Assembly (NCBI GenBank): GCA_008632985.1
Contig: QPGO01000011.1
Location: 372,001 to 436,000, forward strand
Direction of reading: 5' to 3'
Source: Psammoneis japonica
Taxonomy: Eukaryota
DNA length: 64,000 nucleotides
Shown here one piece after another: positions 6,677-39,100 of this stretch (position 1 is the first letter of the stretch; every line of letters begins with the position of its first letter). The position numbers were made by a program, and so were the translations under genes. The notes under the pieces are model-generated. The model was not told the origin of the DNA and did not search any database. It saw only the letters and a list, made by a program, of their open reading frames with translations.

Positions 6677-9600
6677 TTATGCAAACCCTTCCGATTTTGC
6701 CTTCTTCACGACAGGCCCCCCACCTAGCAAATCACCCATGTCGTAAAGATCGTCCTCGTCGTCGCCCATCGCCGCCGCTGCCTCAAGGAAATTGGTCTTT
6801 CTCTTTCGACTCTGTTGCTCCTTTCGAGCTTCATCATCTGCAGCTCTGCTAGACTTGACCAAGCGCGCCTTCAGTGACATCCATTCCTTGGCAAATCTCT
6901 CTTGAAACGACGGCGTACCACTGTTCTCAACGTAGTTCGTCATGCAGTCGTGACTCAACGCCTCTACAGCCGAGATGCGCTTCCTCGGATCTAGGTGAAG
7001 CATCTGCGACAACAAATCAATCATGCCTGAATACTTTTCTGCGTCATCCTTCAAAATGTATTCCAATGCTTTCTTCACTCCCCTCTTGTACTTCTTTGAC
7101 GGCTCCACGTAATTGGGAAATTTGGCAGCGTCCGAGTAGTTATCAGCCGACGGAGCACCGACAATCTTGAACATGGATAGCAAAAGTGACGTCTTATCCT
7201 TTCCAACAAAGAATGGCTTTCTCAGCATCAAGTATGCAACCAGGCATCCCACCGACCATACATCGGTTTCCTTTGTGTGTTTCTTGGATCCAAGTAGCAT
7301 CTCTGGAGCAACGTAAATGTCACTGACTGTCGAGCCTTCATCGTTTTTGTCGTCACCCTTATCCTTTGCCCTTAACGCGCACTTCAAGGCATTCGGGCGC
7401 TTTTCACGTTCCTCCAAAGGCAGCACTGTCGCCTTGTACAATGAACCAAGTTTCAGTACCCCACAGTGATCCACAAAAATCTGATCTGGCTGGAAGAATC
7501 GGACAATAACGTTGTTTGTGTGACAGTGCACAAGAGCCGATAGCAAATCGTGAAACCACGAGACAAGTAGGTCCGGACTTAGTGCCACCTCCTCGCCGCC
7601 TCGTTTCTTCTTTGAACGAGAAATGAATCGATGCAGTACGAATGGCGTTGGTGGACACACAAGATGTAACCCCGAGATACCATCCTCAGCACTCTGCTTT
7701 CCTTTTCCTTCGCTCGATTGAAACAGCGAAGAAATGCTATCCTCGATAACCCCCTTGTTCTTTTTCGAGGTCTTGTCTCGTTCACCGGACTCTGAAGACG
7801 CAGCAATGGAGACCGGTAACGCAAAGTTTGGGTGGCCTTTGGGAGAAGGGATGAGAGTATGCAGCTGAGTTAAGAGTTGCATTTCTTGCAACGCCGCGGG
7901 TGAGAAGCCAATCTGCATGGGAGCTCTCCCGCTCTTGCTGGACCTTGGCTGTTCCCGAGCCTCGACCTTCTCAGGCGGCCACCGCTGTAGAGACACGGCA
8001 ACAAAGCGATCGTCATCCTCTTCATCGGCACTGCCGTCAGGTTGAGTAGCAGTGTGTAGCAAGGGGAACAAATTAGACGCCGATTCTTTTCCCATCAAGG
8101 CGTCTGTGAGGTTTCGAAGCCTCCTTACGGAGTCCAAGTCATTGGGAATTTCCGTCCCTCCAGCTCTGCACGACATGTCGCAGATTGAACCTGTCGTGCT
8201 TGCGCCGTATCGAAGCGGGATCCACCATCGTAGCCCAACATCACGCATTTCAGATTGAGGTATCCTAGCTGCTACGCACGATTTCCCACCAATCTTAGCA
8301 TCTGTTGAAACCACAAGAGACGACAGCTTCGGTTGAACTGTCCCTTCCCAGCCTGCGGTTGTTGATAACGAACTCGAAGGCAACAGTCCCGGCTCCGTCT
8401 TTACATGAGACGCCGGAAGTTCTTGATTATCGTTTGACAAATCCGCACTCAAGGGTTCCGCTTTAGCGGGAAAACCCGTGTCTTCACCGACATGAGAAAG
8501 CAACACGTGCTCAGCAACTGCTCTGGCCCTCCAACTGCCCTCCAGTATAATGTCCGACGTTCCGCCCGCCGCGCTCTGCTTCACAGAGATGCTGCATTGA
8601 CTTTCGACGCTGATTTCTTCGATGGCGGGCTCAATCCGGTCTCTCAAAGTCGCGCTGTCGACCCCTTTGAAGAGACTACGACCTTTTTCACGTTGGGCAA
8701 TAAAGTGAAAACGTTTAGCCACATCCGACAAACCTGTTGTCTTCAAAGTGGAAGCTGCTCCCAACGCCTGACTCATTTTTTCCATGCATTGGCCTCTGAT
8801 GTGTGGAACCATTTTTTCAATCTTCCTTTCACCCCCTTCAATAATATCATTAACTGAGCTTCTCTTGAAGTGACCGGTCTTTACGGCTGCCGCAATAAGC
8901 GCTGCACACTGTGATACACGCAACGGCGAAAGCGATAATGCCGTGAAGAGACGGTCGACAGATACAGATAAAAAGCAGGCAGCCGCAGCAAACACGTATT
9001 CGACACCATGCTTGAGCCACAGAGTTGCTCCTGCACCTAGTATCGGGCCGCTAAACACAAACTCCATAATTATTCTGGCCCTTCTCTCGGAGAGCCCACC
9101 GGCTGTCGATGCAGCCGCAAGAACCCAGTCTGATCCTCTCCAAAAAATGTCATAGTCCAGCGTGAGAAGAACCTCGTTTTCCGCAGTGATGACCCGCCTC
9201 TCAAAGTGCTCCGTTTCTTGGCTACTCTTGTCGAACTGAGCACCAGGGAAAAACGTTTGAAATGCGGCCTCCAAAACTGCTTCGGGCTTTTTCCACTTCG
9301 TCATTTTTTGAGCCTTACATGCCAGGAAAACACAGGCTGTGAGTACATCACGTATCTTGAGTTGTGTTCCGGGGTGATCCATTTCTGACGCCAAGCTGAC
9401 AAACCGGTACAGAATTATAGCAGCGTGAGCAGCAACACTTCCATCCATTTCTAGGTTCGACACTGTGTCAACAATTTCCACACAGGCATTCGAGATTGTT
9501 CGAGAATCAAAACCCTTGTTGGACGGACTCGATGGACGCGGCGACCTTACACCCGATCCGGATGTAGCACCAGATCCAGCTGAAGCCGTCGTCAGTGGTT

Positions 9601-12327
9601 CTGTTCTCGCGATTTCTGTCCAATCCCTCCCAAATATCCAATTATGTTTACGCAGATAATTGTCCCGATAAAGTTCAATCTGCAATCGAATGAGCTCCTC
9701 TGCAATAGCTGCAGCATTATTTCTAAGCTCAGTGGGCGGCGACGTCATTTCAGCAACTCCAGTAGCAGCGGCACCGCCATCGATCCGCAAATGATTCCCC
9801 GTCATGGCATCAACGATAACGGATGCACCAGTAATCGATTGGACATACGCCAGGAATGGGTTTCCCGGTTGCATCAAAAGAGGCTGGAACATTTTGTCGT
9901 CACCCAAATGCAGGTATTGGACACCCCGACCAAGATCCGCAAGACGTGCTTGAATAGATCCCCAAAATTTCTCGATATCCTTTGGGTCGCATCCAAGGTA
10001 CACAGTAAACCGCCATTGTCGATGAGCAGCAATCCCCCCATTCTGAACACCTAAGCCCTCTGGCTCGACCCATAGATTGCAACGTTGGGTCGTTTCAAAT
10101 GCAGGATGAAAAGTGGATGAAGCCAAGTCCAACTCTTCCAACTTCGATGACTCGTCCTGCGCTGAACTTGATGGATCTTCGTCAGAAATCTCCGGAGCCC
10201 TGCTAGAACCATTACACAGTAAAATGAGCTCGTCACTAGTCAACGTGCCCCCCGCAAAGCCCAAGTCAGTAAAAATCCCCGTTACACGTGACGCGGGTGC
10301 ATTGATTTCCATACAAATTTGAAGGAGTTGCTTCCAAAGAACATCCATGGCGACGCGTAAATCGGATACTAGCGTAGCCTCCAAAACAAGTCTGCCGCTC
10401 TTGTCGCTTCGGTTCTCACTCGGACCAAAGTTGACCTGTACACATTTACACTTGTCTCTAATCAATGGTAATTTTCGTCTGACGTGATCGACAATCATTC
10501 TAGGGATACTGACTTCTCGCGTTTCACCCGTCGTCTTGTTGGTCGCAGCTATGTCGACGACTTCGCCGTTTGCCACCGCTTGCATAGCATTGAACTTCAA
10601 AACGTTCTTTTCCAAAAATGTATACGCCTTGACTAGAGTCGGACCACTCGAGATCACCAGTTTCCATACGACTCCATCCATGGATGCCCCAAGTGCTTGT
10701 GCAACTTCTTCGTCCTTCGCTGCGTCGTCCTTGGAACATGGGATAATGCTGATTTTGACACGACAATAGGTTTCGCACCGCATAATCAAATGATTTGCAA
10801 TGAGTGCATCCTTGGCAGGCGTTTGAACGTACATGTAGTCCTTGAGCAATTTAGATTGCTCTCGACTAGCGTCATCCACCGGTACAGCACCAGCAGCGAC
10901 AATGAGGACGAGGGAGACGTCGGAATCGCTTTTTTTCTCGAAATGACAAATGCTTCCGCCTCTTGATCTAGCATCATCCAATCTTCCTTGGCCAAATCTT
11001 CCCAACTCTCTTCTCTGTCGTGAGTGTAAATGACCAAATGCTTCTTGGTGCTTGCATCGTACCGGCAAACATCGGCGGGAAAGTACTCGTGGTATTCTTC
11101 GAAAAGCACCTTGATTCTTCGATTGACAATGGACGATCCCGGTGTTTTTGAGACTGGAGCCTTCCAGTGTCCCACCAATTTTCGATCCAATTCCTCTTCT
11201 TCCAGCGATTTTGGCATTTCCAGAGTTCCTCGACAGCTCTCCGACTTGCAATGACACTTGGTGGGAGCCCTTCCCCTCTTTCGATCCCACTTGTAATCAA
11301 AGGACAACTCTTCTCCAACCATGATATCCCTCAGAGCAAACACGCCTGCTCTCACTATCCCCCGAACTCTCCATCTCATGACAATACAGTTGGGTTCACA
11401 AGAGTGATTGATATACCGAGCGTTGCTTCCCTTTTTTCGCGCATCCAGATATGTATTGTTGTCCAACGCCATAATGTAAAGCATTTGCTCGTTCTGATAC
11501 CGCCGAAAAAGTTTATCCAAATACTGCTTGCGAATGGCTTTTCCAACATACTCGATAATAAAGTCATCCTTCTTGATGGCCTCCGTCGCTCGCAATCCCC
11601 GTCCCTTGATCCCGGCTTCAAAGACTTCGAGAGACTTCCACTGCTTGCGTTGAATACGACGGTTCCCACAACTCTCGTGACAATTGCTACCACACTCTTC
11701 TTGACAGGCATACAGCACACAACTCATATCGACACAACACGGTTCGCCTTGATAGGACGGAGTACAGCCACAGGGATCCACCTTTTCGTACCGTGGGCGT
11801 TCTGCCAATTCGTTCGATAGATTCTTGTCTAGTGAATTTTGTGCCCACTCGACTTCATCAATTTCTTCAAAATCGACATCGTCTCGTAAATTCAGCGAAA
11901 GTGGAGTCGTCGTTTGTGGAATTATCGGGGCAGAAGATGTGTTTACTTCTGCTGGTTTACGATAAACTTCTGGTTGCACGCTTGGTTTCGGGATTTCTGG
12001 AGGAGGGCTACTTCCTGAAGAAACCGTAGCTACAAGAGGTGGAGGAGCCAGTGGCGATGGACCCGAGATTGGCGGTGGTGGAAACAACGTAGGATGCGGT
12101 ACTGGTGGCGGAGGCAGTGGTGGTGCAGCAATGTTGGGTGGAAATGGCGGAGGCGGCTTGGGATTGTTTGGAACCGGGGGCGGAGCGATTGCTTTTCGAG
12201 GGTCAACAGCTGTCGGAGAGGCTGCTAAGCGAGGATCCGCTCGAAATCTCGGATCATTGGTCCATCTAGTGGTAGGCTGTTGCTGCTGTTGGGGTAGCGG
12301 TGGGCCTCCATTTCCAAAAGACGACAT
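6677..12327 (-). CDS. Large fusion: Pro-rich N-terminus, AWS-SET-postSET (SETD2/ASH1 class), Tudor-like, KH-like repeats, cyclin box (T/K/L-like), C-terminal CDK-like pseudokinase; one frameshift near 10880-10935
   Basis: SET: GIKGRGL, EYVG, ARYINHSCEPNC, ELSFDY, CHCKSESCRG (~11770-11220). Tudor-like IVNRRIKVLF...YDASTKKHLVIY...EDL. Cyclin: AAIILYRF, ACVFLACKAQ, AENEVLLTLDYDI (~9500-8830). Kinase: GFSPAALQEMQLL, YVAPEMLLG, DVWSVGC, LDPRKRISAVEALSH (~8020-6940). ORFs 10786-12327 and 6677-11290 overlap. Confidence 0.88.
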
Positions 12328-12880
12328 GACTCAAACTCCGTCAACGTATGCTTCAGACACTCGTTTCTGTATTGTCTTTGTTCTCGTTCTCGACAAGGTT
12401 CAAACAGGAATCAGTTCTCTCTTACAAGCGACTTCTAAAGCGATACAAAGGTCTCACTAGAACAGCTGCAATCCATGGCCCGTTGTTAGAGAGATAGGGC
12501 CCTAACTCTACTGTTGCTGCAAATGATTGACAGAGACAGTCGGCAACACCAACACAGTGGCTGAAGCGAAGCGAGATATTTTATGATGTCGTTTTGACAG
12601 ATTGCCAGTACAAACCACGTAGAAATCTACACAAAAATCAATGCATCTTGAAAACAGAGAGATTTATACTTCATACCTGAATACAATCATTTACCTTCCC
12701 GCAAAAATTTGTGCGTGTGTCTTTGTATCCTGTGCTTTGTGCCCGTTCCATTCGGTAGCACGAACGTGCACACGTCATGTCCGATGACGTGTGCACGTGA
12801 ACGACGACGCAAAAACTCCCTCCGACCGCGACCTCCGACCCGACAATGACGCGACGATAGCCAACGAAATATTCGCCGTC

Positions 12881-13789: not shown

Positions 13790-14128
13790 GAATATTGATT
13801 GGTTTGGAAGATGTCTATTTTTACGGTGAATTGGCAGGAGATACTTCAACTACGCTTTGAACAGCTGTCGCAACAACTGAACTGAACGTGCTCTCTAGAG
13901 AGAGTATTGAATCTTCTTTAGAGGTTCGTTTCCCACAATAGACTAAACTATAGACTCTAGACCAATTGTAATCCCAAGAGAAGCATTTGCTTTTGGGTTA
14001 GAGGAATGGGACTAGGAGGTAGTTGTCTTCAAGGATTTCGCCTCTTTTGTTTGGTGTCCGTCTGTCCACCCTTTTCCCTCCTAAGTTTTCCTCATGATGT
14101 GAGGCCATGACGATGTTGCGTTGGTTGC

Positions 14129-15346
14129 ATGGAAAACAACGCCCCCTTTGAGCCACTGCTTGCTATCGACAATACAACGCCTCCCTCTTACTCACGTATT
14201 CAGATGCACAACATGTTATCACGCCAACCTCTGATCCTGTTGCTGTCGACGCTGCTACTACACCTGCTTTTCACAGCACATGCTCGGCACACTTCGAATC
14301 ATGCTTTGATTGTCTCGTCTTCTCGCTATTGGTTCAACTATCGACACGCCAACAACGCCTTTTTAATGTATGAGAAATGTTTGTCGTATGGAATTCCTAA
14401 GGAAAACATTATTCTTATGGTCGCGGATGATTACGCCACGAATCCTCGAAATCCCGTAAAGAACAGCATGTTGTGGCAAGGCCAATCCCTCTACAATGCA
14501 TCCACTGAAATTCACTATCGCGGTGACGATGTTACAGTTCATAATGTACTCAAGGTCTTATTGGGAAAAGGAGAGAAGAATGTCTTGCAAACCAATCATG
14601 AATCCAACGTTTTGGTATACTGGACAGGCCACGGTGGAGACCAATTCTTCAAGTTTCAAGACTATGAAGAAATCACAGCCAAGGACATTCGAAATGTGTT
14701 TCTACAGATGCATCGCTTACAAAAGTACAATGAACTCTTGTTTCTAGTTGATACGTGCCAAGCCTTTACTCTTGCGAATGAACTGGACGACGTGCCCAAT
14801 GTTTATGCCATTGGAAGTTCGCTCAAGAATGAGAATTCCTATGCACACCACTCGGACAGGCAATTGGGACTCAGTGTCATTGAACGATACACTCATGTGC
14901 TGATTCAACATTTGGACCAGTACGGATTGAATACTCCCCTAAAGCAAACCATGGTGGACCTCATGAATCAACCACAGTATCGACGTGTCTTGGGGTCAAC
15001 TGTTGGTTACAAACAAGGCAAAGATTGTCGTCGAGATGGAAACCAAATACCCTTGTCTGATTTCTTTGGTCGACCTGAGATTCAAAGTGAAACTCAACTG
15101 AGCAAGTCTTCAATGCCATCTTCTGTGTTGGATGCCTTTTCATTCAGCGTGGCGTCTTTCAATGCCACTACTTTTGTTCAAGAGGCAAGTAGTGCCGATG
15201 CGCTGCCACCCTCTGACGACGACAACTCGAAAACGCAGCCCAATCAGAGCGAGCGATTTCATGGTATCGATCCGTCAGATATCCAGTTTGTTACGTTAAT
15301 CTTGGCATTTGTCGCTGCGGTGGTGTGGTGCTCGGAACGTTGGTAA
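14129..15346 (+). CDS. GPI8: GPI-anchor transamidase catalytic subunit (peptidase C13; Gpi8/PIG-K)
   Basis: SSRYWFNYRH, YWTGHGGDQFFKFQD (catalytic His), DTCQA (catalytic Cys), signal peptide and C-terminal TM. True start may be 14204. Confidence 0.95.
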   Translation: MENNAPFEPLLAIDNTTPPSYSRIQMHNMLSRQPLILLLSTLLLHLLFTAHARHTSNHALIVSSSRYWFNYRHANNAFLMYEKCLSYGIPKENIILMVADDYATNPRNPVKNSMLWQGQSLYNASTEIHYRGDDVTVHNVLKVLLGKGEKNVLQTNHESNVLVYWTGHGGDQFFKFQDYEEITAKDIRNVFLQMHRLQKYNELLFLVDTCQAFTLANELDDVPNVYAIGSSLKNENSYAHHSDRQLGLSVIERYTHVLIQHLDQYGLNTPLKQTMVDLMNQPQYRRVLGSTVGYKQGKDCRRDGNQIPLSDFFGRPEIQSETQLSKSSMPSSVLDAFSFSVASFNATTFVQEASSADALPPSDDDNSKTQPNQSERFHGIDPSDIQFVTLILAFVAAVVWCSERW

Positions 15347-17375: not shown

Positions 17376-18202
17376 NNNNNNNNNNNNNNNNNNNNNNNNN
17401 NNNNNNNNNNNNNNNNNNNNNNNNNNNNNNNNNNNNNNNNNNNNNNNNNNNNNNNNNNNNNNNNNNNNNNNNNNNNNNNNNNNNNNNNNNNNNNNNNNNN
17501 NNNNNNNNNNNNNNNNNNNNNNNNNNNNNNNNNNNNNNNNNNNNNNNNNNNNNNNNNNNNNNNNNNNNNNNNNNNNNNNNNNNNNNNNNNNNNNNNNNNN
17601 NNNNNNNNNNNNNNNNNNNNNNNNNNNNNNNNNNNNNNNNNNNNNNNNNNNNNNNNNNNNNNNNNNNNNNNNNNNNNNNNNNNNNNNNNNNNNNNNNNNN
17701 NNNNNNNNNNNNNNNNNNNNNNNNNNNNNNNNNNNNNNNNNNNNNNNNNNNNNNNNNNNNNNNNNNNNNNNNNNNNNNNNNNNNNNNNNNNNNNNNNNNN
17801 NNNNNNNNNNNNNNNNNNNNNNNNNNNNNNNNNNNNNNNNNNNNNNNNNNNNNNNNNNNNNNNNNNNNNNNNNNNNNNNNNNNNNNNNNNNNNNNNNNNN
17901 NNNNNNNNNNNNNNNNNNNNNNNNNNNNNNNNNNNNNNNNNNNNNNNNNNNNNNNNNNNNNNNNNNNNNNNNNNNNNNNNNNNNNNNNNNNNNNNNNNNN
18001 NNNNNNNNNNNNNNNNNNNNNNNNNNNNNNNNNNNNNNNNNNNNNNNNNNNNNNNNNNNNNNNNNNNNNNNNNNNNNNNNNNNNNNNNNNNNNNNNNNNN
18101 NNNNNNNNNNNNNNNNNNNNNNNNNNNNNNNNNNNNNNNNNNNNNNNNNNNNNNNNNNNNNNNNNNNNNNNNNNNNNNNNNNNNNNNNNNNNNNNNNNNN
18201 NN
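17376..18202. other. Assembly gap (N run)
   Basis: 827 N bases. Confidence 1.
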
Positions 18203-20100: not shown

Positions 20101-20311
20101 TCAAGAAAGAGATGCGCCCCAGCTCTTGGGTGGCACCTCGTGCTGCTGCACTGTGACATCAAGAGTTTTTTGGATCTCGTGGCATGTCGCGCACGCAGAT
20201 TTCTGCGTGTGACATTCTACGAAATTGTTTCATGCTTGCCACTTTGCGAAGCCAAAGGCTTTCTATTTTCAACATTCATGAGAATGAAAATGCTCTGGGC
20301 ATGTTTTTTAA

Positions 20312-21872
20312 GGATGGATCTACGTGCTGCGGTCTGTTTTTTGGGAGCTCGCAATTTTCATAAAAATGACCCGGATGCATCGCAGCAAATGCACGCGCGT
20401 TCGCAAAAAAAAAATCAGCGATCGGCCGAACTTTGTCCGTTCGCCAGACACCCCAGAATGCTCAAACGACAGGTGTGACCATGCGCAACTTTCACCATGA
20501 CGACTGCAGACATGACGCGTTCCAGGTCCAGGTGGGACCTCGCACCACTGAACTGTGACATCGACAGTTTTTTGAATCGCGTCGCATGTCGCGCACGTGC
20601 ATTTCTACGTGATTTTGGCGAAATTTTGCATCATTTTATGGCACAATCATCAGGCAATCCATTCAACAACTTTTAACATTTTTTTCTTCTACGCCATTCT
20701 CGAGTGTCTTAAGAATGGCGCAGGGCAGGCGCGTTGTCCAAAACTTTGAGTGCGAACAGAGACACATGCACTGCAAACTTGGCCGTTTGTTTTATGTCGA
20801 AGACAAACATGTCCATTGACCAGAGTACAAACTACAGAGCTCGCACGTAGAATTCTACGGGGCAAATGTCACAAAAAGTCCCACCTGGGACTGGAACCCG
20901 TCACATGTCCATGGCCAGTCAAATGCCACTTGTCGGCATTTCCCGGAAAGTCGCCGCCAATCTCCCACAAGAAGCCCGATTTTAGCAAAATTTGGCGGTT
21001 TTTTTGACCTGACAACAGGGCACAGGTCGTCAAGTGGCATTTGAAGCACTGAGTGTGCAGCTCTCACAGCCATCTGACAGCCCCTGTGAGGGTTTGATGA
21101 ACGCGCGAGTGTTCGGGGGTGTTCCGAGGCAGGTCAAAATGACACGATGAAGTGCGGGAAATGCGAGCTATTTTAAATTAGACCGCAGCATGTGGATGCT
21201 GTGAGAGCTGCACATTCAGCACTTCAAATGCCACCCAACGACCCATGCGCTGTTGTCAGGTCAAAAAAACCGCTGATTTTTGCTAAAATCGGGCTTCTTG
21301 TGGGAGATTGGTGGTGACTTTCCGGGAAATGCCGACAAGTGGCATTTGACTGGCCATGGACATGTCTGCAGTCATCAAGGTAAAAGTCTCGCATGGCCAC
21401 ACCTGTGGTTCAAGCATTCTTGACGAACGCGTGAGTGTTCGGGGGTGTTCCGAGGCAGGTCAAAATGACACGGTGAAGTGCGGGAAATGTGAGCCATTTT
21501 AAATTAGACCGCAGCACGTAGATGCCATAAGAGCTGCACATTCAGCGCTTCAAATGCCCTGTTGTCAGGTTGAAAAAACCGCCAATTTTCGCTAAAATCG
21601 GGCTTCTCATGGGAGATTGGCAGTGACTTTCCGGGAAATGCCGACAAGTGGCATTTGACTGGCTGTGGACATGTCTGCAGTCATCAAGGTAAAAGTCGCG
21701 CATGGTCACACCTGTCGTTTGAGCATTCTAGGGTGTCTGGCGAACGGACAAAGTTCGACCGATCGCTGAAATTTTTTGAGCAAATGCACGCGCATTTGCT
21801 GCAACACATCCGGGTTGTTTTTATAAAAATTACGAGCTCCCAAAAAACAGACCACAGCATGTAGATCCATCC
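20312..21872. mobile_element. Non-autonomous DNA transposon, Kolobok-like (TTAA TSD, GG...CC ends), ~200-bp TIRs, internal duplications and a nested family A end
   Basis: TTAA|GGATGGATCTACGTGCTGCGGTCTG... and ...CAGACCACAGCATGTAGATCCATCC|TTGA. 20312-20513 is inverted relative to 21670-21872. Tandem ~320-bp units at ~21100-21420 and ~21425-21720. Confidence 0.75.
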
Positions 21873-21899
21873 TTGATGATGTGCTCCAAGTGTGAAGGA

Positions 21900-25564: not shown

Positions 25565-26082
25565 CTAAGGGTATGGCGCGTATGGCGGGTATGGGATGCC
25601 CTTCGACCCCGACATGCCCTTCGACCCCGACTTGGGGCTCTTTGGCGACTTGGGGCTCTTCGGCGACTTGGGGCTCTTTGGCGACTTGGGGCTCTTCGGC
25701 GACTTGGGGCTCTTCGGCGACTTGGGGCTCTTCGGCGACTTGGGGCTCTTCGGCGACTTATAGCTCGTTGGGGGGGGTAATACTGACAAAATGTGCGGCA
25801 ACAGCAGCAGCGTCAGTGGATAGGAAAAGGATTTGACACAAAACCATAGACAAATCCTGCAACAGCCACCCCGCACGCCACTGGTAGTGCGAAATGAAAC
25901 GACGGGGAACGAACCAACAACCACGAGAATCACTAGGCCCAAACAAAGAAACTCACCGGGAGTTTGCGAGCACCTGGAAACTCGGAAGAGGCACCGCGAA
26001 TCTTGGAGACTTCGCGAAGCTCGGCAGAGGCAGAAGCCAGGACGAGGGCGAGGACGGCGAAAATGGCAACGGAGGGCTTCAT
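25565..26082 (-). CDS. Secreted silaffin-like (Lys-Ser-Pro)n protein: signal peptide, RKL processing site, 14 KSP repeats, Tyr/Pro tail
   Basis: Exon 1 26082-25957 MKPSVAIFAVLALVLASASA...GARKLP followed by GTGAGT. Last exon from ~25782 has 7 x 18-bp units whose only variation (CCA/CCG) is synonymous in the KSP frame, ending KSGSKGMSGSKGIPYPPYAPYP*. Splice phase is off by one unless the G8 run at 25770-25777 is mis-sized or a mini-exon exists. Confidence 0.8.
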
Positions 26083-26977: not shown

Positions 26978-29900
26978 AATGTCACAACATTTCAATTGCA
27001 CGTCAATCGTGGGTTCGTACGAGGGACAGATCAGTCACACAGAATTGATCGGATGTTGGAAACTTGTAACCTGCGCACAAATGCGATCGCTTGACGATGT
27101 TGACATCTACGTGTCAATGGCAATCGCACCCGGACAATCTGTTGTCATGAACGTGTTCTCCGAAAGGCCTGTCAGTCTGTGGGAACAGCGCAAAAGCTTC
27201 AGGCCATTGAGAACTCGTTCGGAGAAACCCCCAAAATGATTGAGCAAAATCCAATCTCACGACATTCACTTTTCGCACTTTGCTCTGCTTTCATTTGCAC
27301 TTGTTCTTCAAGCACAGCACATTGTGCACACACACCACAGAAGGTGAAAAGACAAAAATGAAGCTTTCACCTCATGTTGCCAATGCCAAGTCTTCCCCCA
27401 AGCAAAAGAGAAAATTGTTCCACAACCACTGGGATCAATCTCTGAGCCAAAGACACTCAAACCAAGACAACACCTCAAGATGGAGCAGTGCTTTGTCCCA
27501 GGAAAGAAGGACAGCCCACCACACTTCACCATCAATGTTGAACATTGCAAGAAGCAAGGTGTTCCCAAGTGCATTGAATGTCAAAGAACTGTGGTCAACT
27601 CTTGGTGGGTCAGAACATCAAGAAGCAATCGGATGAGTTCCGTCTCATGCTGGCTGTCAGGAAATGCCTGCATGCATTTGAGAGTGGGGCTGCAAATGTT
27701 GAAAATGAAGAGAGCAAAGGAGCCTTCAAAAAATGTCTGCAACACCTCGCCAGACATGTCGTCTTCCCAAAGAACGCACCCCAGATTCAGAAGCGTCATT
27801 TACGACGCAATCTCCAGAAGCCAGAGAGCAGGAAGATCCAAGAAATCACCACTTGGGTGCAAGAAGTCAACAAAGACCTGGTGCCTGACCCTTCCTTTGA
27901 AGAAGTTCAGAAGATCAAGGAGGATGAGCTCAAGGATGTCCTCTGCAATCTTGCTTGCACCTGCAAATGGCAGCAGCACCTGTCGACCCTTCAAGGTTTG
28001 AGAATGCCTTCGACAAGTTGGCCAAGGCTTCAGAGCATCTGGAGGTTGCTGAGGATGTCTTTGACACTGTTCATCATGTCAAGGCTGATGCTGGGGACAA
28101 CCTGGATCAAAAGCCAAAGATGGATCCAACCCTGGTTCCAAAAATGGTCGTCAATCTGGCGCCAAATGATCTGAGTCCAACAAGTGGTGCAACTGTTGCG
28201 AGAAATCCACTCATGACATGGACAAGTGCTGGGACATTGACAGACTTGTAAAAGAATGAATGCACTGGAAATCACAAACGCAACCCAAAAAGGCATCATT
28301 CAAATGGCAACTGCACATGGTCACAAACAAGAGTTGAATGCCATGGTGATCCAGGCAGTTCAAAAAACACTCAAGATGAGTTCTTCAAACAACAATGCAA
28401 AGTGCAAGAGCAAGGAATGCAATTCTGACACCCTCAGTGAAAAGAATTGTCAGTTTGAAAAAATGATGTGCAATGATTCTGAAGAATGACTGGTGCCGCT
28501 GAGAAGTCTTGCATGCCGCTGGGCGCCAGGAAGCCCAGCAAAAGGGTCAAAGTGATGCATGCCACCAGCCCAGCAGTCATTGCTCACATCAGCACCTCTT
28601 TGGGTGAAGCAAAGAACAAGCCTCTGTGTGTTCTCCTTGACAGCAGAACATTGTCAACCACAGCTTTGTGCAAATTCATGTGGAAATTGAGAATGAAGAA
28701 ATCCACCACCAAACTTGGGAAACCAAGGGTGGGCTCTTCACGACTGACAGTCACTGCACAGCACAGTTCTCTTCACCCAAATTTGACAAACATGAGATGC
28801 CCAATGGTGTGTGTTGACAACACCCCTTCTTCTTTGAGTCATTGTGATGTGATCATGGGAACACAACTTGATGTCAAGTCTTGGGATCACATCGAACTTT
28901 GTTGCAAACAAAGAAATCAAATGGGAAGAAGCAGCTGCACCCATGAGCAATGTTGATGCACTCTTCAATGCCAGTGGGCTCAAGCTGATTGCCAACCACA
29001 TTGAGGAATCCCATGCCGTGGTCAGCCTCAATGACAGGGTCAGTTGAATCCTTGACTCAGATTGTCATGCAGCTGACCTCAATGATTGACTGCAGCTGCA
29101 ACTCATCTGACTCCAGAGGAGCAGAAGCAGTTGAACTTCCTCCCAAAAAGATTTGAGGATGGATTGTCCAGATGAGGTCTGTTTGCACGCGAGCTTGCAT
29201 TTTTTTGCAAAAAACCCGGATTTCTTGCACTGGATGCGCGCACTCGCCAACAAAACATTTTCAGCGATGGGTCGAAGTTTGTCCCTTCGAAAGACATCAT
29301 AGAAGGTGTTGGCGATGGTTGTGACCATGCGCGATCTTTAGCTCAACGACTGCAGACATGTCCACAGCCAGTCAAATGCCAGTTGTTGGCATTTCCTGGA
29401 AAGTTGTGGCTTGTCTCCCACAAGCAGTGCGATTTTGGCAAAAAACAGCGCTTCATCGAATGTGACAACTGCACCGAATCCAACAGTTGGCGTTTGAAGG
29501 TTGAAATGTGCAGCTCACACACAGGTCTGACAGCCCTGATGGGGGCAGGATGCACTCATGCCGGCAAGTGTTTGGGAGTGCTCAGAGGCATCGCAAAATG
29601 ACACGGGCGAAGTGCGGGGAAATTGCAAAATCACGAGCCAATTAAAAAAACACCTCATCCAGACGATCCATCCTTGAAAACCTTTTTGACATTTCTCTGA
29701 GCAAATGGACCAGGAAACCTGTGGATCTCAAGTTTAAGTCAGGCACAAATCTGCATCATGCAAAGCCATTTCCCATGCCACAAGCCTTGGAGGCGACTGC
29801 TCAAAAGGAGGTTGAAAGACCATGCAAGTTGAAAGTCTCAAGAAAAACGAGTTGCTCCAAATGGGCAGCTCCAACCTTCATTCAACCAAAGAAAAATGGT

Positions 29901-32592
29901 TGAGTTTGGTTTCTGTCCAACTTTTGTGAGCTGAACAAGAGGTCAATGCATGCTCTGTTTCCTCCACCCAATGTTCAAGACATGCTGCAAAAACTTGAAG
30001 GTTTTGTGCGCCACTTCCCTCTTGTTGATTTGAGCATGGGACACTGCCACGTCAAATTGACTCCATGTGCACATTGCTTGTGCACTGTTGTCATGCCTTG
30101 GGGCAAATGTGAGTGCTGCAGACTGCCTGCAGGAATCTGCGGAGCTCCAGACATTTTCCAACAAGAGCAAATGAGTGAGCTCATGGCAGGTCTGGAGTTT
30201 GTCAGAGCTTGCATTGATGGCACACTGTGCCTTGCAAAAGGTGGTTTTCAAGACCATCTCAAAAAGCCTGAAATGGTGTTCACACACCTGAACAAACTGG
30301 GCTGAAGGTCAGCGCCAAAAAGTCCTTCTTTGCCAAACCTGAAGTGGGCTGTCCAGGCTTTCACATCACCCACAATGATGTCAGCCCAACACCAACAAAA
30401 GCAAAAGCAGCTCACTTGATTGCAACACCCAAAACTTGCAAAGAATTGCGACATTTTGTTGGTGTGATTCATGTGGCCTTGACAGTCTCATGTTCTTGCT
30501 CTGTCAGCCAAACTCACCTCATCCTGGGTGAAGTGGCAATGGACTGAAATGGAGTGAAAAGACTTCAAAAATGTGGTGCAAATTGTTTCCAAAGATGTGT
30601 CATTGTGCACCTGAATTTCAACAAACCCTTTAAGACACACACTGACACAAGCAATTCTCAATTGGGGGTGGTCATTGTGCAGAACAACTGACCTCTTGCC
30701 TTCTGCAGTTGCAAGTTGAGTGGAGTGCAGACATGCCACGCTGCAACAGAAAAAGAGCTTTTGTCCACAATGAAGACATTTGAGGAATTTCAAAATGTGC
30801 TGTTTGGCCAACAGATCAACACGTCATGGATCACAAGAATCTCACCCATGAGAACTTCACAATGGATGGAGTGATGCACTGGCTTGGCAACTGACAATGG
30901 AAGAATGCAGCCCCAAATTAAATTGCCTCAAGAGCAAGGCAAGCATTGTTGCACAGATGCAATCAGCTGACTTGCTGTGAAAAAAATTGGACCTGTGGAA
31001 AACCCAGGCATTGAAGATCTGGCGGAGAAAGTCACACCCAAATCCCACGACAGTGTCTTTCCATCAACTCACAAAGTTCCAGACACTGAGCAAAAGTGGG
31101 GCAAAGACATTCTCTCCAAATTGTTGGTGCAACACATCACACAAAGACTTTTTGTAGAGGCGGGTGAGACCGGTTGCTCATGTGTCATGAGGAAAAAATC
31201 ATTGCACCCAAGGCATTGCAAAAAGTGGTGATGGATTGGTGCCATGCACACCTTCTGCACCCAGGCACAAACAGAGCTGAAGAAACAATCTTGCACCACT
31301 TGTGGTGGTCTGCCTTGCATGAAAACATGCAAAAACATGTGTCGAAATGTGAGGCATGCCAAAAATTTAAAAAGAAACAGGTGAAAGATGGACACTTGCC
31401 CCCCTGAGTGCACAAAAGCAGTGCCATGGGAATGACTGTGTGTGGATCTCATTGGACCATGCATGATGTGTTGCAAGGGAAAAAAGAAACCCCATGATCC
31501 AGCAACAGGATGGTTTGAAGTTGTGGAAATTCCAAACAAGGAATCCACAACCGTTGCTGGATTGTTGGAGTGGATGTGGCCAAGTGGACATCCTTGGCCA
31601 TCATCAATTGCGTGTGACTGTGGAAGTGAGTTCGCTGGACACCAACTCAGAAACATGGTTGAAGAGGACTGTGGCATGAAATGCAAGCCCACAACTGCAT
31701 GAAATCCACAAGCAAACACAGTTGTTGAATGCACACATCAAGCACCAGGCAATGTGCTGCGTGCATTTGACCCGCAAAATGCATCTCTGGACACAGACAA
31801 TCCATTTTTCTGGTGTGCTGTCAGCAGTGGCCTTTCTGTGCATTCTGCACACCGCGCCACTGTGCAAGCTGCACCAGGACAACTGGTCTTCAACAGAGAC
31901 ATGATTTTCAATGTCCAGCACATTGCTGATTGGAGGTTTGTTCAGAAACAAAAACAAGAAATCACAAAAAAAAAACAATGCTCAAGAGAATGCTTGACGT
32001 GCTCCATGCATGTGCAGAGTGGGAGAAAAGACTCCGCTTGAAAGAGACTCTCAGAAATTAGAGCAGCCCTGTGTTGGACCACACGCACAATGACAATGGC
32101 GCACACTGATGGCGCAGCACACAGATCAAACATGGTGACATCATTGATGCTGTCAACATTTGCTGCGTTGTGCCATTTGACGAATGACTCCAACATGCAG
32201 CTGGGGAGGCAAATGCAACATGCACTGTCATGTGCATTTCATGTGTGTGTGCACTTCAATGTTGTTGTGCTTCAATTGCACATCAATTGTGGGTTCATGC
32301 AAAGGACAGATCAGTCACACAGAATTGGTTGGAAGTTGGAAATTGCAAACATGATTGCTTGACAATGTTGACATCTTGCGCGTCAATGGCAATTGCATCC
32401 GGACAATCTGTTGTCACACAAACGTGCATTTTTTGAAAGGCACTTTAGTCTGTGGGAATGGCGCAAAAGCTTTGGGCCATTGAGAGCTCATTCAAAGAAA
32501 CCCAAAATGATTGAGGAAAATCCAATCTCACAATTTTCACTTTTCGCACTTTGCCCCACTTTTGTTTGCACTCGTTCTTTGAGCACAGTGCA
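26978..32592 (+). mobile_element. Ty3/Gypsy LTR retrotransposon, decayed (gag, protease, RT, RNase H, integrase)
   Basis: LTRs at ~26978-27321 and ~32214-32592, PPT GGGGAGG at ~32203. Protease VLLDSR; RT WAAPTFIQPKKNG and FVRACIDG; RNase H TEKELL; integrase HLLHPG, CEACQKFK, GHLPP, DLIGP. Confidence 0.92.
29157..29673. mobile_element. Kolobok-like MITE nested in Gypsy pol, related to 20312-21872
   Basis: TTGA|GGATGGATTGTCCAGATGAGGT ... ACCTCATCCAGACGATCCATCC|TTGA. Removing it plus one TSD restores the Gypsy reading KRFENLFD. Confidence 0.8.
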
Positions 32593-32599
32593 AAAGCAT

Positions 32600-33700
32600 C
32601 TTTTCACCCATGAAAAGCATCCTCACAATGAAGCCCTTGTCAAAATCAATTGCTTTGCAACAGCTTCTAGAGACAAGGCTTCCTGCTTGACCACTCTTGA
32701 GACACATCAGGTTGTGAAAGTGCCGCGCAAGCACAAACGCATCTCATCATGCTTGTCGCGAGAACTTTTGCATCCTGTTGGTCATGAGTGCAGTTGATTG
32801 CATTGACTCTTGTGCCAACTCTCCAAAGTTTTGCTTTCCCCTCTTTTTCGACAAAGGTTGCAAACAACAACACTGTTTTGCGAGTCCCCAAGAATGTTCA
32901 CAATGCCCTCCCCAGCCATTTCTGGACAACACTTTGGCGCTCTGTCAATGGCCATGCCCATTTTGCAACCCATCATTTGCAACAACATCTCTTTGTTGAT
33001 GAAGTCATTGCAAGCAGCCACCAAGTGAAGGAGAGATGTTGACTTGTTGATCTCTCCATCTTTGCCCTTTGTGCCATCCACAGCATTTTCCAGGGTTGTT
33101 GGGGGGTCAATCCATCCTTGCTCATGCAAAATTTTCTACAATCCTTTTGGCTTGTTGACCCATCCGTGCTTCACCTTTTGAATGGGTTTCTTCAACAGGT
33201 GTGTTGTTGCTCCTTGCTGTGTCAATCAACTTGTCTTTTTCTTGCTCCTGATGTTCTTGATGTTTTTTGCAGAAGCTTGTCAAAAATTTCATTGCGCAGG
33301 AGCTTCCTGAGTTTCAGTTTGACCCTCAACAGGTGTGTCACATTTCTCATCTTCTCATTCTTCCGGCCTCATCCACTGTGGTCCCTGGCCTTCCGCCTCA
33401 CTCAATGCCATTGTTTGCACTTGTCCTGCAGACAACATGCCAGCTGCTTTGGCATGAGGACCTGGGGAAGCCCTCTGCCAGAACAACCTCAGTGGGGTCA
33501 TCAGGGACCCAAATCAATGAATCCTCACATTTGCAGATGGCCAGGCTTCAGTCTGCCAAAACACGTGTGAGCACAAGCACGTCAATGTGTTCACAAATGA
33601 ACAAGTCAGATTTGTCATGAATCAAAATCATTTGTGACAAACAAGTGTGATTTGGAAACAAATGAGTGCCCGGCACCTCTGACAAATTTCCATGGCTTCA
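32600..33700 (-). mobile_element. IS630/Tc1-mariner-like DDE transposase remnant
   Basis: PKGL*KILHEQGWIDP and MGMAIDRAPKCCPEMAGEGI, similar to the PKCHPELAGEGIE motif of this group. Confidence 0.6.
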
Positions 33701-33849
33701 AATCAAGGACATGCAAACCAATGAGTTCATTGCATTGCAACAAGTTGACTCCAGCATGACATTCCATTTGATGACTTTTGGCAACTCACTGACAATGGAC
33801 TGGGTGACTGGCATCCCAGCTGGCCATTTTGCGATGCATCCTTCCAGCT

Positions 33850-36800
33850 CACTTGCCAAGTGGCACCCCGGAACCAAGTTTTTCAATTTAGATTTGCTCT
33901 GCAATGTCATTTGCAACAATGTCAGTGCTGCTTTTTGTGTGTTGCATCCACTGAGCTGGTGTCAACTCCAGTTCGCACATCTTGGTGAAGTTTGCCATGT
34001 GGCTGCCCTTGTCCCCTGACTCATCGTTGTCTTCTTCCACCCTCTCATTGTGCCCTGCTGCAAACTTCCTGTGCAAATCTTCCCATTGGCCCAGCTGTTC
34101 ACTTGCTGCATCTTGTTTGATTTCCCTCACCAGTTTCTCAAAGAACTTGTTTGCCCCATGGGACCATCCTTTGCACTTCCTGTGCATCTTGCATCATGTC
34201 CTGGGTGCACCTTCTTCTGCTCCGTTCCTGGATTTCTTTGTGGCAAAGTGCTTCAGGCATCTCAAGCACTTTCTCTTCTTGGCACCTCATTCCCTGTTGG
34301 GCAGGTTCTTGTTGCTTTCCAGCTTGTTTGTGGGCGCTGACCTCTGTCAAAACGGTCAATTGCTCCTGTGTTGTTTGCTCCACTCTCGCCTTCTTGATGC
34401 ATTTGTTGCGGCTCTCAAAGGACTTCTCCCATGCCTCTTTGAATTTGTTCTTCATTTGCTCTGCCGTGCTCAGCTCTGTTGGCTCTTGAGAGTCTTTTTC
34501 CAAAATGGCGAATGAGCTTGATCCATTTGCATCCTCTTGTTTGGCAACGGTCATGTCCGGCATCATTGTCTCACACAAGTCTTCCCTTCCAATGGGGTTT
34601 CCTTGGTCATCAAGCTCCACATTGCAGTCTGACATCAAACAACTGTCCTTGTTGTTGCTCTTGTGCTCCACATGCCACACAACAAAATTGTTCTTCAGAA
34701 GCATGTGGGTGAACACCTCGGCACATGAGACATGCCAACCTTGTGTTGTCGGAGAAGCTTTTCTTCCAACAAACATCTCCCATGACTGGCTGCAACAAAC
34801 AGCTGCAGAACACTGTTTGCAATGTTGGACTCAACAATCGATCCTGGAATTGTTCCGGCAAAGGCAAGATGCAAATTGTGTTTGTCGCAGCATGCACAAA
34901 GCACTGCGTCATCAGCAACAACATGCTCCTGATGTTGGTTTGTCATCTCTCCAGCCACAACAATCCTCAGCGACAGCACTTGCTGTGAAATTTGTCTTGC
35001 TGGGCTTGGCACGCATTTGATTGCTTTGTTGCCAGCCAGCCCTGGCACAACCTGTTTTGTTTCATTTTTCATCCACAGGTGACACAGGTGTGTTTTTTGC
35101 TCTCTGCTTCCAGCAGGTCTGCCAGCTTTCTGTCTGTCAGTGTTGGTCTGCAATTCTGGGCACAGTCTCTGTGCAACATGCCAGTTTCCTCTGAGTGCCT
35201 TGCATCAAAGATGAGTGTGACACTGAGAAACACCTTTTCTTTGACATGGTCTCTCACCTTGACTGTGTCTCTGCCCACCTTCTTGTTGTTGTCCATCCAC
35301 TTGGCTGGATTGACAAGTCTCTGCACCGTGGTTGCCATGACTTCATGTTGTTTTCTGTGGCATTTGTTTTTGTCAGCACTCCTCCCAGCGCCAGTCATGG
35401 TTGTGTGCACATTTCTGCCCAGCCATTTGCCACTGCAATCTGGATTTACAGGCATTTGCAAACATTGTGCCCCAAACAACACATGGCCATGGAACTCATT
35501 TGTTGTCATGTGTTCACTGACACGATTCGAATTTGCTCACCTGAGTTTCAAAAACATTGCATTTGGCCATGACTGAACATTTTAATTGCATGTTTTTTTA
35601 AATTTCCTTGCCCATCATCCCGACATTCGTGTCTGTCCAGCTGCAAGGCATGTGCATTCTCAATCAGCTCACACACCCGCACAACAGCCCGATTTCAAAA
35701 TCAATCAGCTCACTTGCTTCCGATGACTCTCCTTTTGTTTTGGACAATCTCAGCAATCCCCACCCTGCAGTTTGGTCCTTGGTCATGGTTTGTTCCTGCC
35801 ATTGCTGATGCAAGCCTTGCCAAATCAGTTGCGTCAATGTTGCTGCCAGTGATTTGGGCATGCTGTCCCAAGCAACTGTGTTGCTTGTTCGTCAATGCTG
35901 TGACAAGGAGCCCTTGTTGACACCATCCTGCCAATCTTGCTCAAACTCTGAGGGCACCTCTGGAAACACCGCCGACAGCTCGGACATTGGCTCCCCAACA
36001 GGCTCTTCTGCTGCTCCCTCCCTTTTGTCATGTGTCACAACTGCAGGATGCAATGTGGAGTTCAGTGCCAAGTTCAGCGCTGCTGATTCAGATTTTGAGA
36101 ACAGCGCCTCTGTTGAACAAGATGATGAGTCTGCATGCACCAACAGATCTCATTCCAATGGAGATGACAAGGATGAGCTGTGTCTTTTTGAGATGTTTCC
36201 CAGCACCAACTCTGCCAACGATTGTGGCCTCATGTTTTGTCAGCTGACCCCCCTGAGCTGATCACACTGTGCGACAATTCCGGTGCCACACCAGAGGATT
36301 TTGCGATTCGCTGCTCACTCTGCTGCAACTTCTCCATGAGAAAAAGAAGTTCAATGCATCCAGGGCTCTTTGGCACAAACAGTTGCTGAAAAGCGTCAGT
36401 GTGAAGGTGTGCATGCCAAAGCCAGACACACGCATCATTTGTGGGGGTGCCAAGTTGCCCATTTTTGGATGCAGGACATGTCAAGGGACTTGCTTGCCCG
36501 CTCCCTTTTCAATGATTGTCACAATCTGAATGTCAACCAAGCAATGAACAAATGGCACCAAAAGTTTGTTCCCGCAGATGACTGCAACCTCAGAGAAGCA
36601 GTTTGCAACAAATGGCACTCTGACACATGCGATGATCTCCCCAAATGTTTTGATCCAGAGAAGGACCTCCTTCTTCAAATGGGCTTGCACACTGACCAGA
36701 CAGGAACAACTGACGTGTGCCAATGACATCCACTTGAACCCTGGTTGTTCTGTGCCCTCATTGTGAAGAGGAAAGCTTGAGAACACTCTTGCTCCTGGCG

Positions 36801-39100
36801 TCATTTGGGGGTTTCATGCCATGCACTGACACAGGCAGTTTGTCTGGTTGCACCAATGAAAATGGCAACACCATCAAGGATGACCCAGCACCACGTGATT
36901 TGTCCACCAACATGCAAGCACACCACAACATGCTCTTGTTTTTGTTGGAGGACTTGAAGCATCTTCAGAAGCACCCACTCCAGATGATGGCAAACTTGGG
37001 TGGGCAACGTCAGCTCTCATGTGCCTCCTCCTCATGCAAGGTCCAATTTTTGGTGACCAGAAATCACAGGACTGCATGTGTGGTCCAATGGAGGTGGCGC
37101 TGGTTGGGTTCACCTGTTGCACATGTGTTCATTGACAAATGCTTCCAACGTGTTCCTCCCAACAAAAAAAATGGACTGTCTTGCACTCCAACAAATGTGA
37201 AAACAGTGTTGCACCTCAACAAAATGGCCCTTGGCTGTCATGGTGCATCTGCCAAGGAAATCAACTGCAATGGACGAGTGGAAGATTTCCTAAAATGTCA
37301 GCAGAAGCCAGCCACAGCACTGCTTGCCAGACTGCACACGATGCATCCCTTGAGAAATGCCTTTGATGGCATTGATTTTGGCAGCAACCCACAGGGTGTG
37401 TGTGCTGCTGCCACTGACAATCACCTGTGCTTGTCTTGGGAGGCCAGAGGTGGAGAGAATGTGGCCACCATCACATGTCATGGTTGGACACTGAAGGAAA
37501 AAGGAAATTTTGAAATGGAGTTGGTGGCAGCAGTGGCGTCTGCTGGGTCAAGCACATTTGGGAACCATCCTCCAAAAGGCTGTTTGAGCTCTGGTTTCAC
37601 CAGAATGACCCTCATGACCCACTCAGAGAAGATGGGAACCTTGTTTTGCCTGACTGTGGCAATGCAATTCACAGGCACTCATGAGATCATGGAAAAGGAG
37701 GCTTGCTGACGACAAGCAAAGAAGTGCGCCACCTTTCCATCAGCTTCTGAGATGAAGTTGTCACAAAAGGAAAAACAGAGTGCTCCAGCCAACGGCAGCC
37801 AATCGGATGACACCACCTCTGGGAAAAAGCAGTCCCATCAAACAGCATCCAACCAGCATGGAACAAAATGGAGAAGACTGTGCAGCACATCCACTGCCAG
37901 CACTCCCGAGGAAGCTGCTCCAACAAAAGACCCAGCATTGCCGCCAAGTGCCTTTCCTCACAGGAAAGATTTACACTGCACTGCAGACCATGACAACAGC
38001 AAGGCATTTGACAAAAACCTTCTTCAATCCAATTTGTCATCAAGAACCTCAAGCTGCGCAGCTTTGGGTTCTTGTTGCAAGATGACTTTGATGATTTTCA
38101 GATGGACCAGCTCTTTGTTGAATCATGGAAGATTTTGAAGGCAGTTGATGGCAGGCAAGCCATCTCATGCCCCTCCCACAAATGCGCTGGATCCCTTGCA
38201 TGTCCTGTTCTGCAGGACAGGTGCCAAGGGCTGTCAAAACAAATGTTCAGAAGTGTGTCAACAGCAGGTTGAGAAAGACCATCACAAAGAAGAAGGTTGA
38301 TTTGCCTGCACCCAAAACTGCCAACGTCGTGGAAGACCTCAAAACAACCCATGTCAGTTTTTGCACCCAACGCAGAATTGTGTTGAGAAGCCATGTTGCA
38401 AGAAACCCCTTGTGGAGGGCAATGGGCATGTGGGCTTGGCACTGTCTGACATGTCTGCCTTTTCTTTGTTCCTTGAACATGCTCTTTGTCATCACACGCA
38501 TTGCTGCCATTCACACATCTGCTTCCCAAGGACGTGATGCAGCTTGGCACCAAAGCCCTGGGTTTCAGAACAAAGAGAGTGGTGTCATGCATGGACACCA
38601 CAATTCATTGAGGCAACTCTGCTGTTGACAACAATGCTGAGAAGAGTTGTGCACAGCTGTGCACACTGTTCAACCGGCTGTTCATGGGAGGGCCCGTGCA
38701 AATGCGCGCATCCAACATGTGAGAGACTTCTGAAAACAAAAGCCAAAAAATTTCAAAGACAGCCCCCAGAAGCAAGGAGAGGAAACCTTCACATGCCAAA
38801 CTTGCAAAAGGGTGTGTGAGTCTGTGTTTTTGATTGTTGCACTGACACACTTGACCGTGAATCCAAACAAAGCAAAGCCGATGACGACATGGATGACTCG
38901 TTGGCACATTAGTCACCACCACATGCAAGATGCCTCATTTTGTTTTCGAGTGTGATGTCCTGTTGATGGATTGTTTTGGGAAGACAAAAAAAGCAGACAA
39001 GGAATCGGGCAAACCATGCAAGGCTTTCCTCAAAGCAATCCAAGAATTGGAACTGAGCCAGCAAAGACTCGAATTGTGGAATGAATGTTTTCTTGTACGT
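33850..39100. mobile_element. Plavaka-like DNA transposon remnant: plus-strand transposase (~36400-39100) and divergent minus-strand accessory ORF (~33900-35550)
   Basis: FDPEKDLLLQMGLHTDQTGTTD, PLEPWLF, NAFDGIDFGSNPQGV, TCERLLKTKAK. Accessory ORF remnants KGWSHGANKFFEKLVREIKQD and VRDHVKEKVF. Confidence 0.6.

Follow-up and report, generated by a model that had tools for sequence, protein, structure and literature searches.

Conversion of nearly every TpA to TpG or CpA in dead transposons of the diatom Psammoneis japonica, with a T[A]Y preference on each strand

The window that we analysed, a stretch of 64,000 nucleotides from the 91.4 Mb genome of Psammoneis japonica (contig QPGO01000011.1, positions 372,001 to 436,000), contains a block at 27150-39100 that is depleted of TpA and CpG, and the question is what could have erased the TpA steps and by which rule. 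An earlier note on this DNA had remarked that few TpA are left, which is correct: there are 20 TA in 27300-38900 where 804 are expected from base composition, and 172 CG where 648 are expected. The block, delimited by segmentation and by its edges, has an observed to expected ratio (o/e) for TA of 0.00-0.06 per kb, and for TA-erased DNA the ratio is 0.02. Elsewhere in the window, genic DNA has a TA o/e of about 0.5-0.6 and repeat blocks one of 0.00-0.13; in the latter TG and CA are raised to 1.5-2.3. Nearly every T-A step in the dead transposons has turned into T-G or C-A.

At the left of the block lies a dead Gypsy-type retrotransposon on the plus strand (26990-32592). The aligned part of its 5' LTR (26990-27323) is 80% identical to 32271-32588 and also aligns to a family copy; TCGTACGA in this LTR corresponds to TCATGCAA in the 3' LTR, and a few TA and CG are left at its outer end, while conversion is more complete in the aligned part of the 3' LTR (32266-32592). 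The internal gag-pol region (27324-32265) carries stops and frameshifts, is 74-77% identical to family copies and matches RT_RNaseH and Integrase_H2C2 when translated with X at the stops; in a related copy the order is RT-RNaseH-integrase. It is interrupted at 29157-29673 by an insertion, visible as a gap in the alignment to a family copy, that is kin to the inverted-repeat elements at 20310-21874 (repeats D2, D10 and I2). Then follow three unclassified stretches without a Pfam match, namely a TA-erased dispersed repeat of about 0.9 kb (32592-33502, 84% identical to L066-L068), a dispersed repeat of about 3.3 kb (33499-36807, 81% identical to L052, the matched parts being TA-poor in the copies fetched), and DNA that is TA-erased by its TA counts (36808-39100). 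Elsewhere in the window are a GPI-transamidase gene (14111-15346), whose best named matches are the pennate diatoms Fistulifera, Seminavis and Mayamaea (41-51%) and which points to a pennate, very probably raphid, diatom as host, a frame of 1539 codons (6677-12330, minus strand) that matches a kinase domain and, weakly, a cyclin and adjoins a SET-domain frame, an 827-base N gap (17376-18202) and an 18-nt tandem repeat (25592-25789).

The 20 remaining TpA, between 27801 and 37973, start at 27801, 28249, 29300, 29339, 29643, 29735, 30631, 30919, 31155, 31368, 32059, 32446, 32668, 33137, 33889, 35447, 35583, 35599, 37291 and 37972, and their contexts are TTAA (7), TTAG/CTAA (5), TTAC/GTAA (4), CTAC/GTAG (2), CTAG (1) and ATAG (1). 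The six examples quoted before were all located (27801, 28249, 31155, 32668, 33137 and 35447), and the contexts listed with them, TTTA/TAAA, TCTA/TAGA, TTAA and TTAG, cover 20 of 20 remaining TA, against 274 of the 801 TA that the window has in its TA-normal DNA. RTAY is absent as had been said (0/20 against a background of 254/801, P=5e-4), and it accounts for 1 in 80 TA across the other depleted blocks of the window, while YTAR makes up 13 of the 20 remaining sites against 150/801 (P=7e-6). That all these TpA are survivors holds in part: compared with homologues that are only about 70-88% identical, 9 of the 20 are matched by TA in one or more of the homologous copies, 9 are matched in none and 2 are uncovered. 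TA is common among the homologues at four sites (30919, 32059, 32668 and 33889), and four of the six quoted examples (28249, 31155, 33137 and 35447) belong to the nine without TA in homologues, which may be newer TpA or reflect lineage differences. Some of the 20 are likely newer and persist in poor context, and this would imply repeated action. Two or more homologues have TA at 258 positions, and at these the state of the window copy is TG in 117 cases, CA in 106, CG in 9, another in 22 and TA in 4. A contig of a public DNA run, which may be from the source sample, reads TG at 27801, and this fits one allele being still unconverted. Allele-like differences in 27576-36035, of which 37 out of about 110 were classed (40 were listed, 3 of them outside the block), are CG versus TG/CA in 17 of the 37 cases and TA versus TG/CA in 4.

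To follow the changes among copies we used 19 full-length members of the related Gypsy family (L050, too diverged, was left out), in which TA o/e ranges from 0.03 to 0.78. The outcomes at TA sites were TG 1421 times, CA 1350 times and CG 18 times, and the young copy L004 differs from one natural copy by 170 changes at 213 TA and by only 4 transversions. In the LTR pairs of 18 copies (6155 positions) there were 328 differences of TA type, 98 of CG type, 14 other transitions and 10 transversions, so that most differences within a pair (328/450) are at TA and the change must follow insertion; the same comparison in young copies indicates recent action. The affected tracts, called with a two-state model whose parameters were set by eye, are about 1 kb or longer with sharp edges that differ between copies. 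Copies that are 93-97% alike differ in the parts affected, and homology alone would therefore not set the tracts. The changes come after insertion, are shared equally between the strands, occur in retroelements as well as DNA elements and stay within bounded tracts, each at least about 1 kb long.

Transversions and non-CpG C>T changes are equally frequent inside and outside the tracts, but C>T at CpG is raised 4.7-fold inside (205/6306 against 17/2393, P=1e-13), and the tracts are thus not simply older. In Phaeodactylum tricornutum, loss of DNMT5a removes methylation and de-represses young TEs, according to the accessible parts of a report that also mentions RIP (PMC9998398). By analogy, and from the CpG decay, we infer that the tracts are methylated domains. 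The tract state at element ends did not correlate with the TA density of the flank (rho -0.25, P=0.16, 34 ends). As a separate observation, all of the Gypsy copies L031-L049 are poor in TA across the gag region in their 5' half, where 250 bp contain 2-7 TA sites compared with 16-28 in the 3' part, and most of them still have long open frames with few tyrosines; this lineage may have been exposed to the mutator and yet gone on transposing. A TA-erased, broken copy of an LmjF365940-type deaminase gene was also seen (L130, G000:C14:369997-373080), with intact-looking relatives at L128 and L129; duplicates of host genes are targets as well.

A change of TA to TG can be read as a mutated A on the plus strand and TA to CA as a mutated A on the minus strand, and a competing-risk model was fitted on this basis to 284 sites in 19 copies with 3544 in-tract observations (11 of 295 sites were left out, being either inherited in common or outside the tracts in every copy). 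A 5' T is nearly required, and the order of preference per strand is A>C>G=T at -2, T=C>>G>A at +1 and C>G>T>A at +2. The relative rates were A 1.0, G 0.83, C 0.72 and T 0.69 at -3; A 1.0, C 0.68, G about 0.51-0.52 and T 0.52 at -2; T 1.0, C 0.91, G 0.41 and A 0.30 at +1; and C 1.0, G 0.83, T 0.73 and A 0.60 at +2. Bootstrapping over sites gave 2.3-3.7 for C and 2.8-4.3 for T relative to A at +1, and 0.41-0.60 for G relative to A at -2, where G is the same as T. The AIC was 7667 for a flat model, 7648 for R at -2, 7447 for an RTAY site, 7142 for Y at +1, 6992 for A at -2 with Y at +1 and 6961 with -2 and +1 free, and permuting sites at +1 in a first, partly overlapping set gave at most 61 in 40 shuffles against 583 observed. 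The copies depend in part on one another (same-direction agreement between pairs averages 0.61, with a top value of 0.84), so the AIC gaps and chi-square values are overstated. Judging from these alignments, the target on each strand is 5'-T[A]Y, with C or T at +1 about three times as good as A, and aided by A at -2.

Conversion is strongly dependent on the flanks even after ancestral sites are allowed for, and the refuting condition of the earlier note, a rate independent of the flanks, does not hold: in-tract survival goes from 18/454 at ATAT to 161/273 at TTAA. Retention, taken from 500-bp bins of fetched DNA (379 depleted ones compared with 165 normal ones, related copies included), goes from 0.001 at ATAT to 0.227 at TTAA and reaches 0.93 at TTTAAA. 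TpA survives only with a poor context on both strands, which is why YTAR and A-tract-flanked TA (TTTAAA, TCTAAA, TGTAAA) remain, and sites that offer TAY on both strands are lost first. Melting of the DNA was considered as a cause and rejected, TTAA being resistant and GTAC being converted, the opposite of what stacking energies would give. The earlier note had the preference right but not its motif. It proposed the duplex palindrome RTAY, and no class is indeed more strongly depleted in bulk than the three of RTAY (ATAT 1 against 406, ATAC 13 against 610, GTAC 26 against 334), but we give this target hardly any credence, with G at -2 as poor as T, an AIC of 7447 against 6961, an unequal choice of strand wherever the site is not a palindrome (CTAC 249 against GTAG 78, ATAC 245 against GTAT 135), survival of GTAC (67/359) above that of the non-RTAY class ATAG/CTAT (44/297), and failure on a held-out MITE family (rho -0.17, P=0.44). 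A site with TAY on both strands reads as RTAY, and one with TAY on neither strand is left over as YTAR.

That MITE is 389 bp long, with terminal inverted repeats and an apparent 4-bp target duplication (20514-20902, outside the block), and it has changed in both directions. On 24 of its 25 sites (the one left out was mostly in other states) the strand model correlated with survival (rho -0.56, P=0.005) and with strand choice (rho 0.64, P=0.001). Each of the 29 copies of this MITE that were fetched (L096-L124) has TA-poor surroundings, with at most 8 TA per 500 bp on each side, and itself keeps 2-27 TA, from which it follows that they landed in already converted domains and were changed later.

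The rule at +1 can also be seen away from TA. In the tracts, A>G at non-TA VAY came to 73/9996 against 6/4089 outside, a 5-fold excess (P=5e-6), while VAR was unchanged (40/15048 against 15/5086), and the +1 rule therefore holds without a 5' T, if only as a leak of about 0.7% compared with 38% per strand at TA. There were no strand runs overall (1069/2143 against a null of 0.505), and no long-range strand coordination in 11 of 12 bins of density and distance, with P=0.04 in one. TATA pairs are different: 170 of 247 changed on the same strand against a null of 0.53 (0 of 2000 permutations), and isolated TATA became TGTG 40, CACA 45, TGCA 3 and CATG 22 times against 28, 25, 24 and 33 expected, a result that rests on 11-25 site pairs. 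The same lean was seen in nine other copies (68/108) and in the MITE (20/29), counts that come without a null, and pairs 3 and 4 nt apart were slightly below the null (P 0.003 and 0.015). The few TATA sites suggest short local double hits over many rounds.

We think that a process of the host converts A to G in the DNA of silenced repeat domains, acting on a single strand each time, probably through a putative adenine deaminase, and we would put the probability of this at roughly 60%. The agent would be a zinc-dependent adenine deaminase that acts on briefly opened DNA, the inosine would be read as G, and recruitment would be to CpG-methylated chromatin, the methylation itself being suggested by the CpG decay; many small hits, each with a reach of about 2 nt, would then add up over many cell divisions. 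A more specific claim is that diatoms naturally possess an adenine deaminase for genomic DNA, that it is directed to repeat chromatin methylated at CpG, and that its pocket takes (A)T[A]Y and its reach is about 2 nt. This claim is a tentative one, to which we give somewhat less than even odds.

An error-prone polymerase could give a similar picture if, when it closes repair gaps in methylated repeats, it places G across from a template T wherever the primer ends in T, much as polymerase eta acts at WA. The genome has five Y-family polymerase loci, the tracts coincide with a CpG decay that could trigger mismatch repair, and in somatic hypermutation polymerase eta makes A mutations after T, with WA hotspots during gap filling and a link to the repair of nearby C lesions, as the available parts of PMC6423074 have it. 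However, the hotspots of that enzyme include AA as well as TA, and here AA is nearly spared (47/8980 changed in tracts against 0.38 per strand at TA); transversions are not raised, strand runs beyond 2 nt are absent although long gap-filling patches should leave them, and a quarter of the errors of polymerase eta in vitro are at C/G (PMC6423074, same parts). We regard it as an unlikely source.

Still less probable is a sequence-specific adenine modification, for instance N6-methyladenine at TAY, that marks the repeats and is then deaminated or miscopied. The domain-wise action fits an epigenetic mark, and a near-absolute dinucleotide rule is typical of methyltransferases, but the graded flank effects and the weak VAY leak look more like a loose binding pocket. 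RNA editing, reverse-transcriptase error or assembly errors beside homopolymers are very improbable, even if many leftover TA touch A or T runs and nine of the 20 are without TA in homologues: the changes are equally frequent on both strands, differ between the LTRs of a single copy and extend to a DNA-type MITE, which excludes the RNA-level readings, the same contexts resist in many separate copies, and contigs of the public DNA run, possibly the source sample itself, cover 30 of 30 bins with ordinary allele-like differences.

With regard to a putative adenine deaminase, the deaminases found in the genome are DCTD, a TadA-like and an ADAT2-like gene, two guanine-deaminase-like genes, RibD, an APOBEC-like ORF and the LmjF365940 type; they are the expected housekeeping types or candidates, and none is tied to the process. 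Read by eye, what we take to be the equivalent of position 108 is Asn in the ADAT2-like gene and Asp in the TadA-like gene. Asn is not diagnostic there, since it occurs in about 36% of natural TadA homologues (accessible text of bioRxiv 10.1101/2020.12.24.424366). An Inv-AAD search gave no match. The APOBEC-like frame (L125:1063-2022, minus strand, 320 codons) has an AID/APOBEC-like deaminase domain with SNAD4, NAD1 and APOBEC_N matches, and a genome search with the domain matched only itself and no paralogue. Another frame combines a deaminase domain with a 2OG-Fe(II) oxygenase (L085:313-1785, minus strand).

New in this analysis are the tests by which RTAY and UACG were rejected, the leak at VAY, the link to CpG inside young copies and the paired changes at TATA. 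The strand-resolved motif, the VAY leak and the 2-nt reach together make a precise assay, all of which a candidate enzyme must reproduce, and by them a deaminase can be told apart from a polymerase. If nature does have a deaminase of DNA adenine that all but insists on a 5' T, it would matter for algal genome defence and for base editing; it would be the first dedicated natural editor of DNA adenine and, as an A>G counterpart of RIP, would be common to diatoms and Rhizaria. Tyrosine codons are stripped and no stops are added, so that mutated repeats can resemble intact genes and LTR-based dating in this genome will overestimate ages.

Several known systems invite comparison. Hypermutation by ADAR or reverse transcriptase gives A>G on the sense strand only, whereas here TG and CA are about equal (1421 against 1350) and a MITE is affected too. 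RIP of fungi is triggered by homology between repeats and proceeds in tracts, with dinucleotide-specific transitions tied to cytosine methylation, but it changes C to T and makes TpA; here the direction is opposite, with TpA erased (o/e 0.02) and no new stop codons. TadA and the adenine base editors derived from it also change A to G, favour a 5' T and allow C at +1 (PMC9630288, in part), and the likeness to TadA that the earlier note had suggested stands as regards these two positions. It does not extend to the G of UACG: RNA edits of ABEmax are described as favouring UACGA in the part available of PMC8052359, but here TACG has no bonus (factor 0.95, bootstrap 0.72-1.23) and TAT equals TAC. 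TadA7.10 and 8e mutate dA in any context, as far as the excerpt of PMC10085711 goes, and non-TA sites are here about 50-fold less affected or lower, so the 5' T requirement appears much stricter than reported for them.

The only relevant account of A-to-G genome defence at TpA that we found, in literature outside the subscription journals and with no diatom report among it, is a preprint by Mettrop et al. on the chlorarachniophyte Bigelowiella natans (bioRxiv 10.64898/2026.01.13.699255). In the accessible part of that work the changes are regional, in nuclear DNA, and only TpA>TpG/CpA, they fall on foreign or TE-like sequence, an A-deaminase is proposed, and the ongoing rate in integrated viral DNA is about 1000-fold above background. 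The diatom shares with it that changes are almost only TpA>TpG/CpA and that they are confined to mobile DNA (TA o/e about 0.5 in genic DNA and <0.1 in repeat blocks). It differs in that B. natans offers a live rate, partly on single-copy viral DNA, whereas we see diatom TEs with near-complete conversion, and in that the main text of the preprint is without a flank analysis (its supplements list the mutated sites, with 231 mutations in Table S2), while the flank rule and the CpG link were measured here. By analogy, the process in this diatom seems to work like the TpA hypermutation of B. natans, with T[A]Y as its motif.
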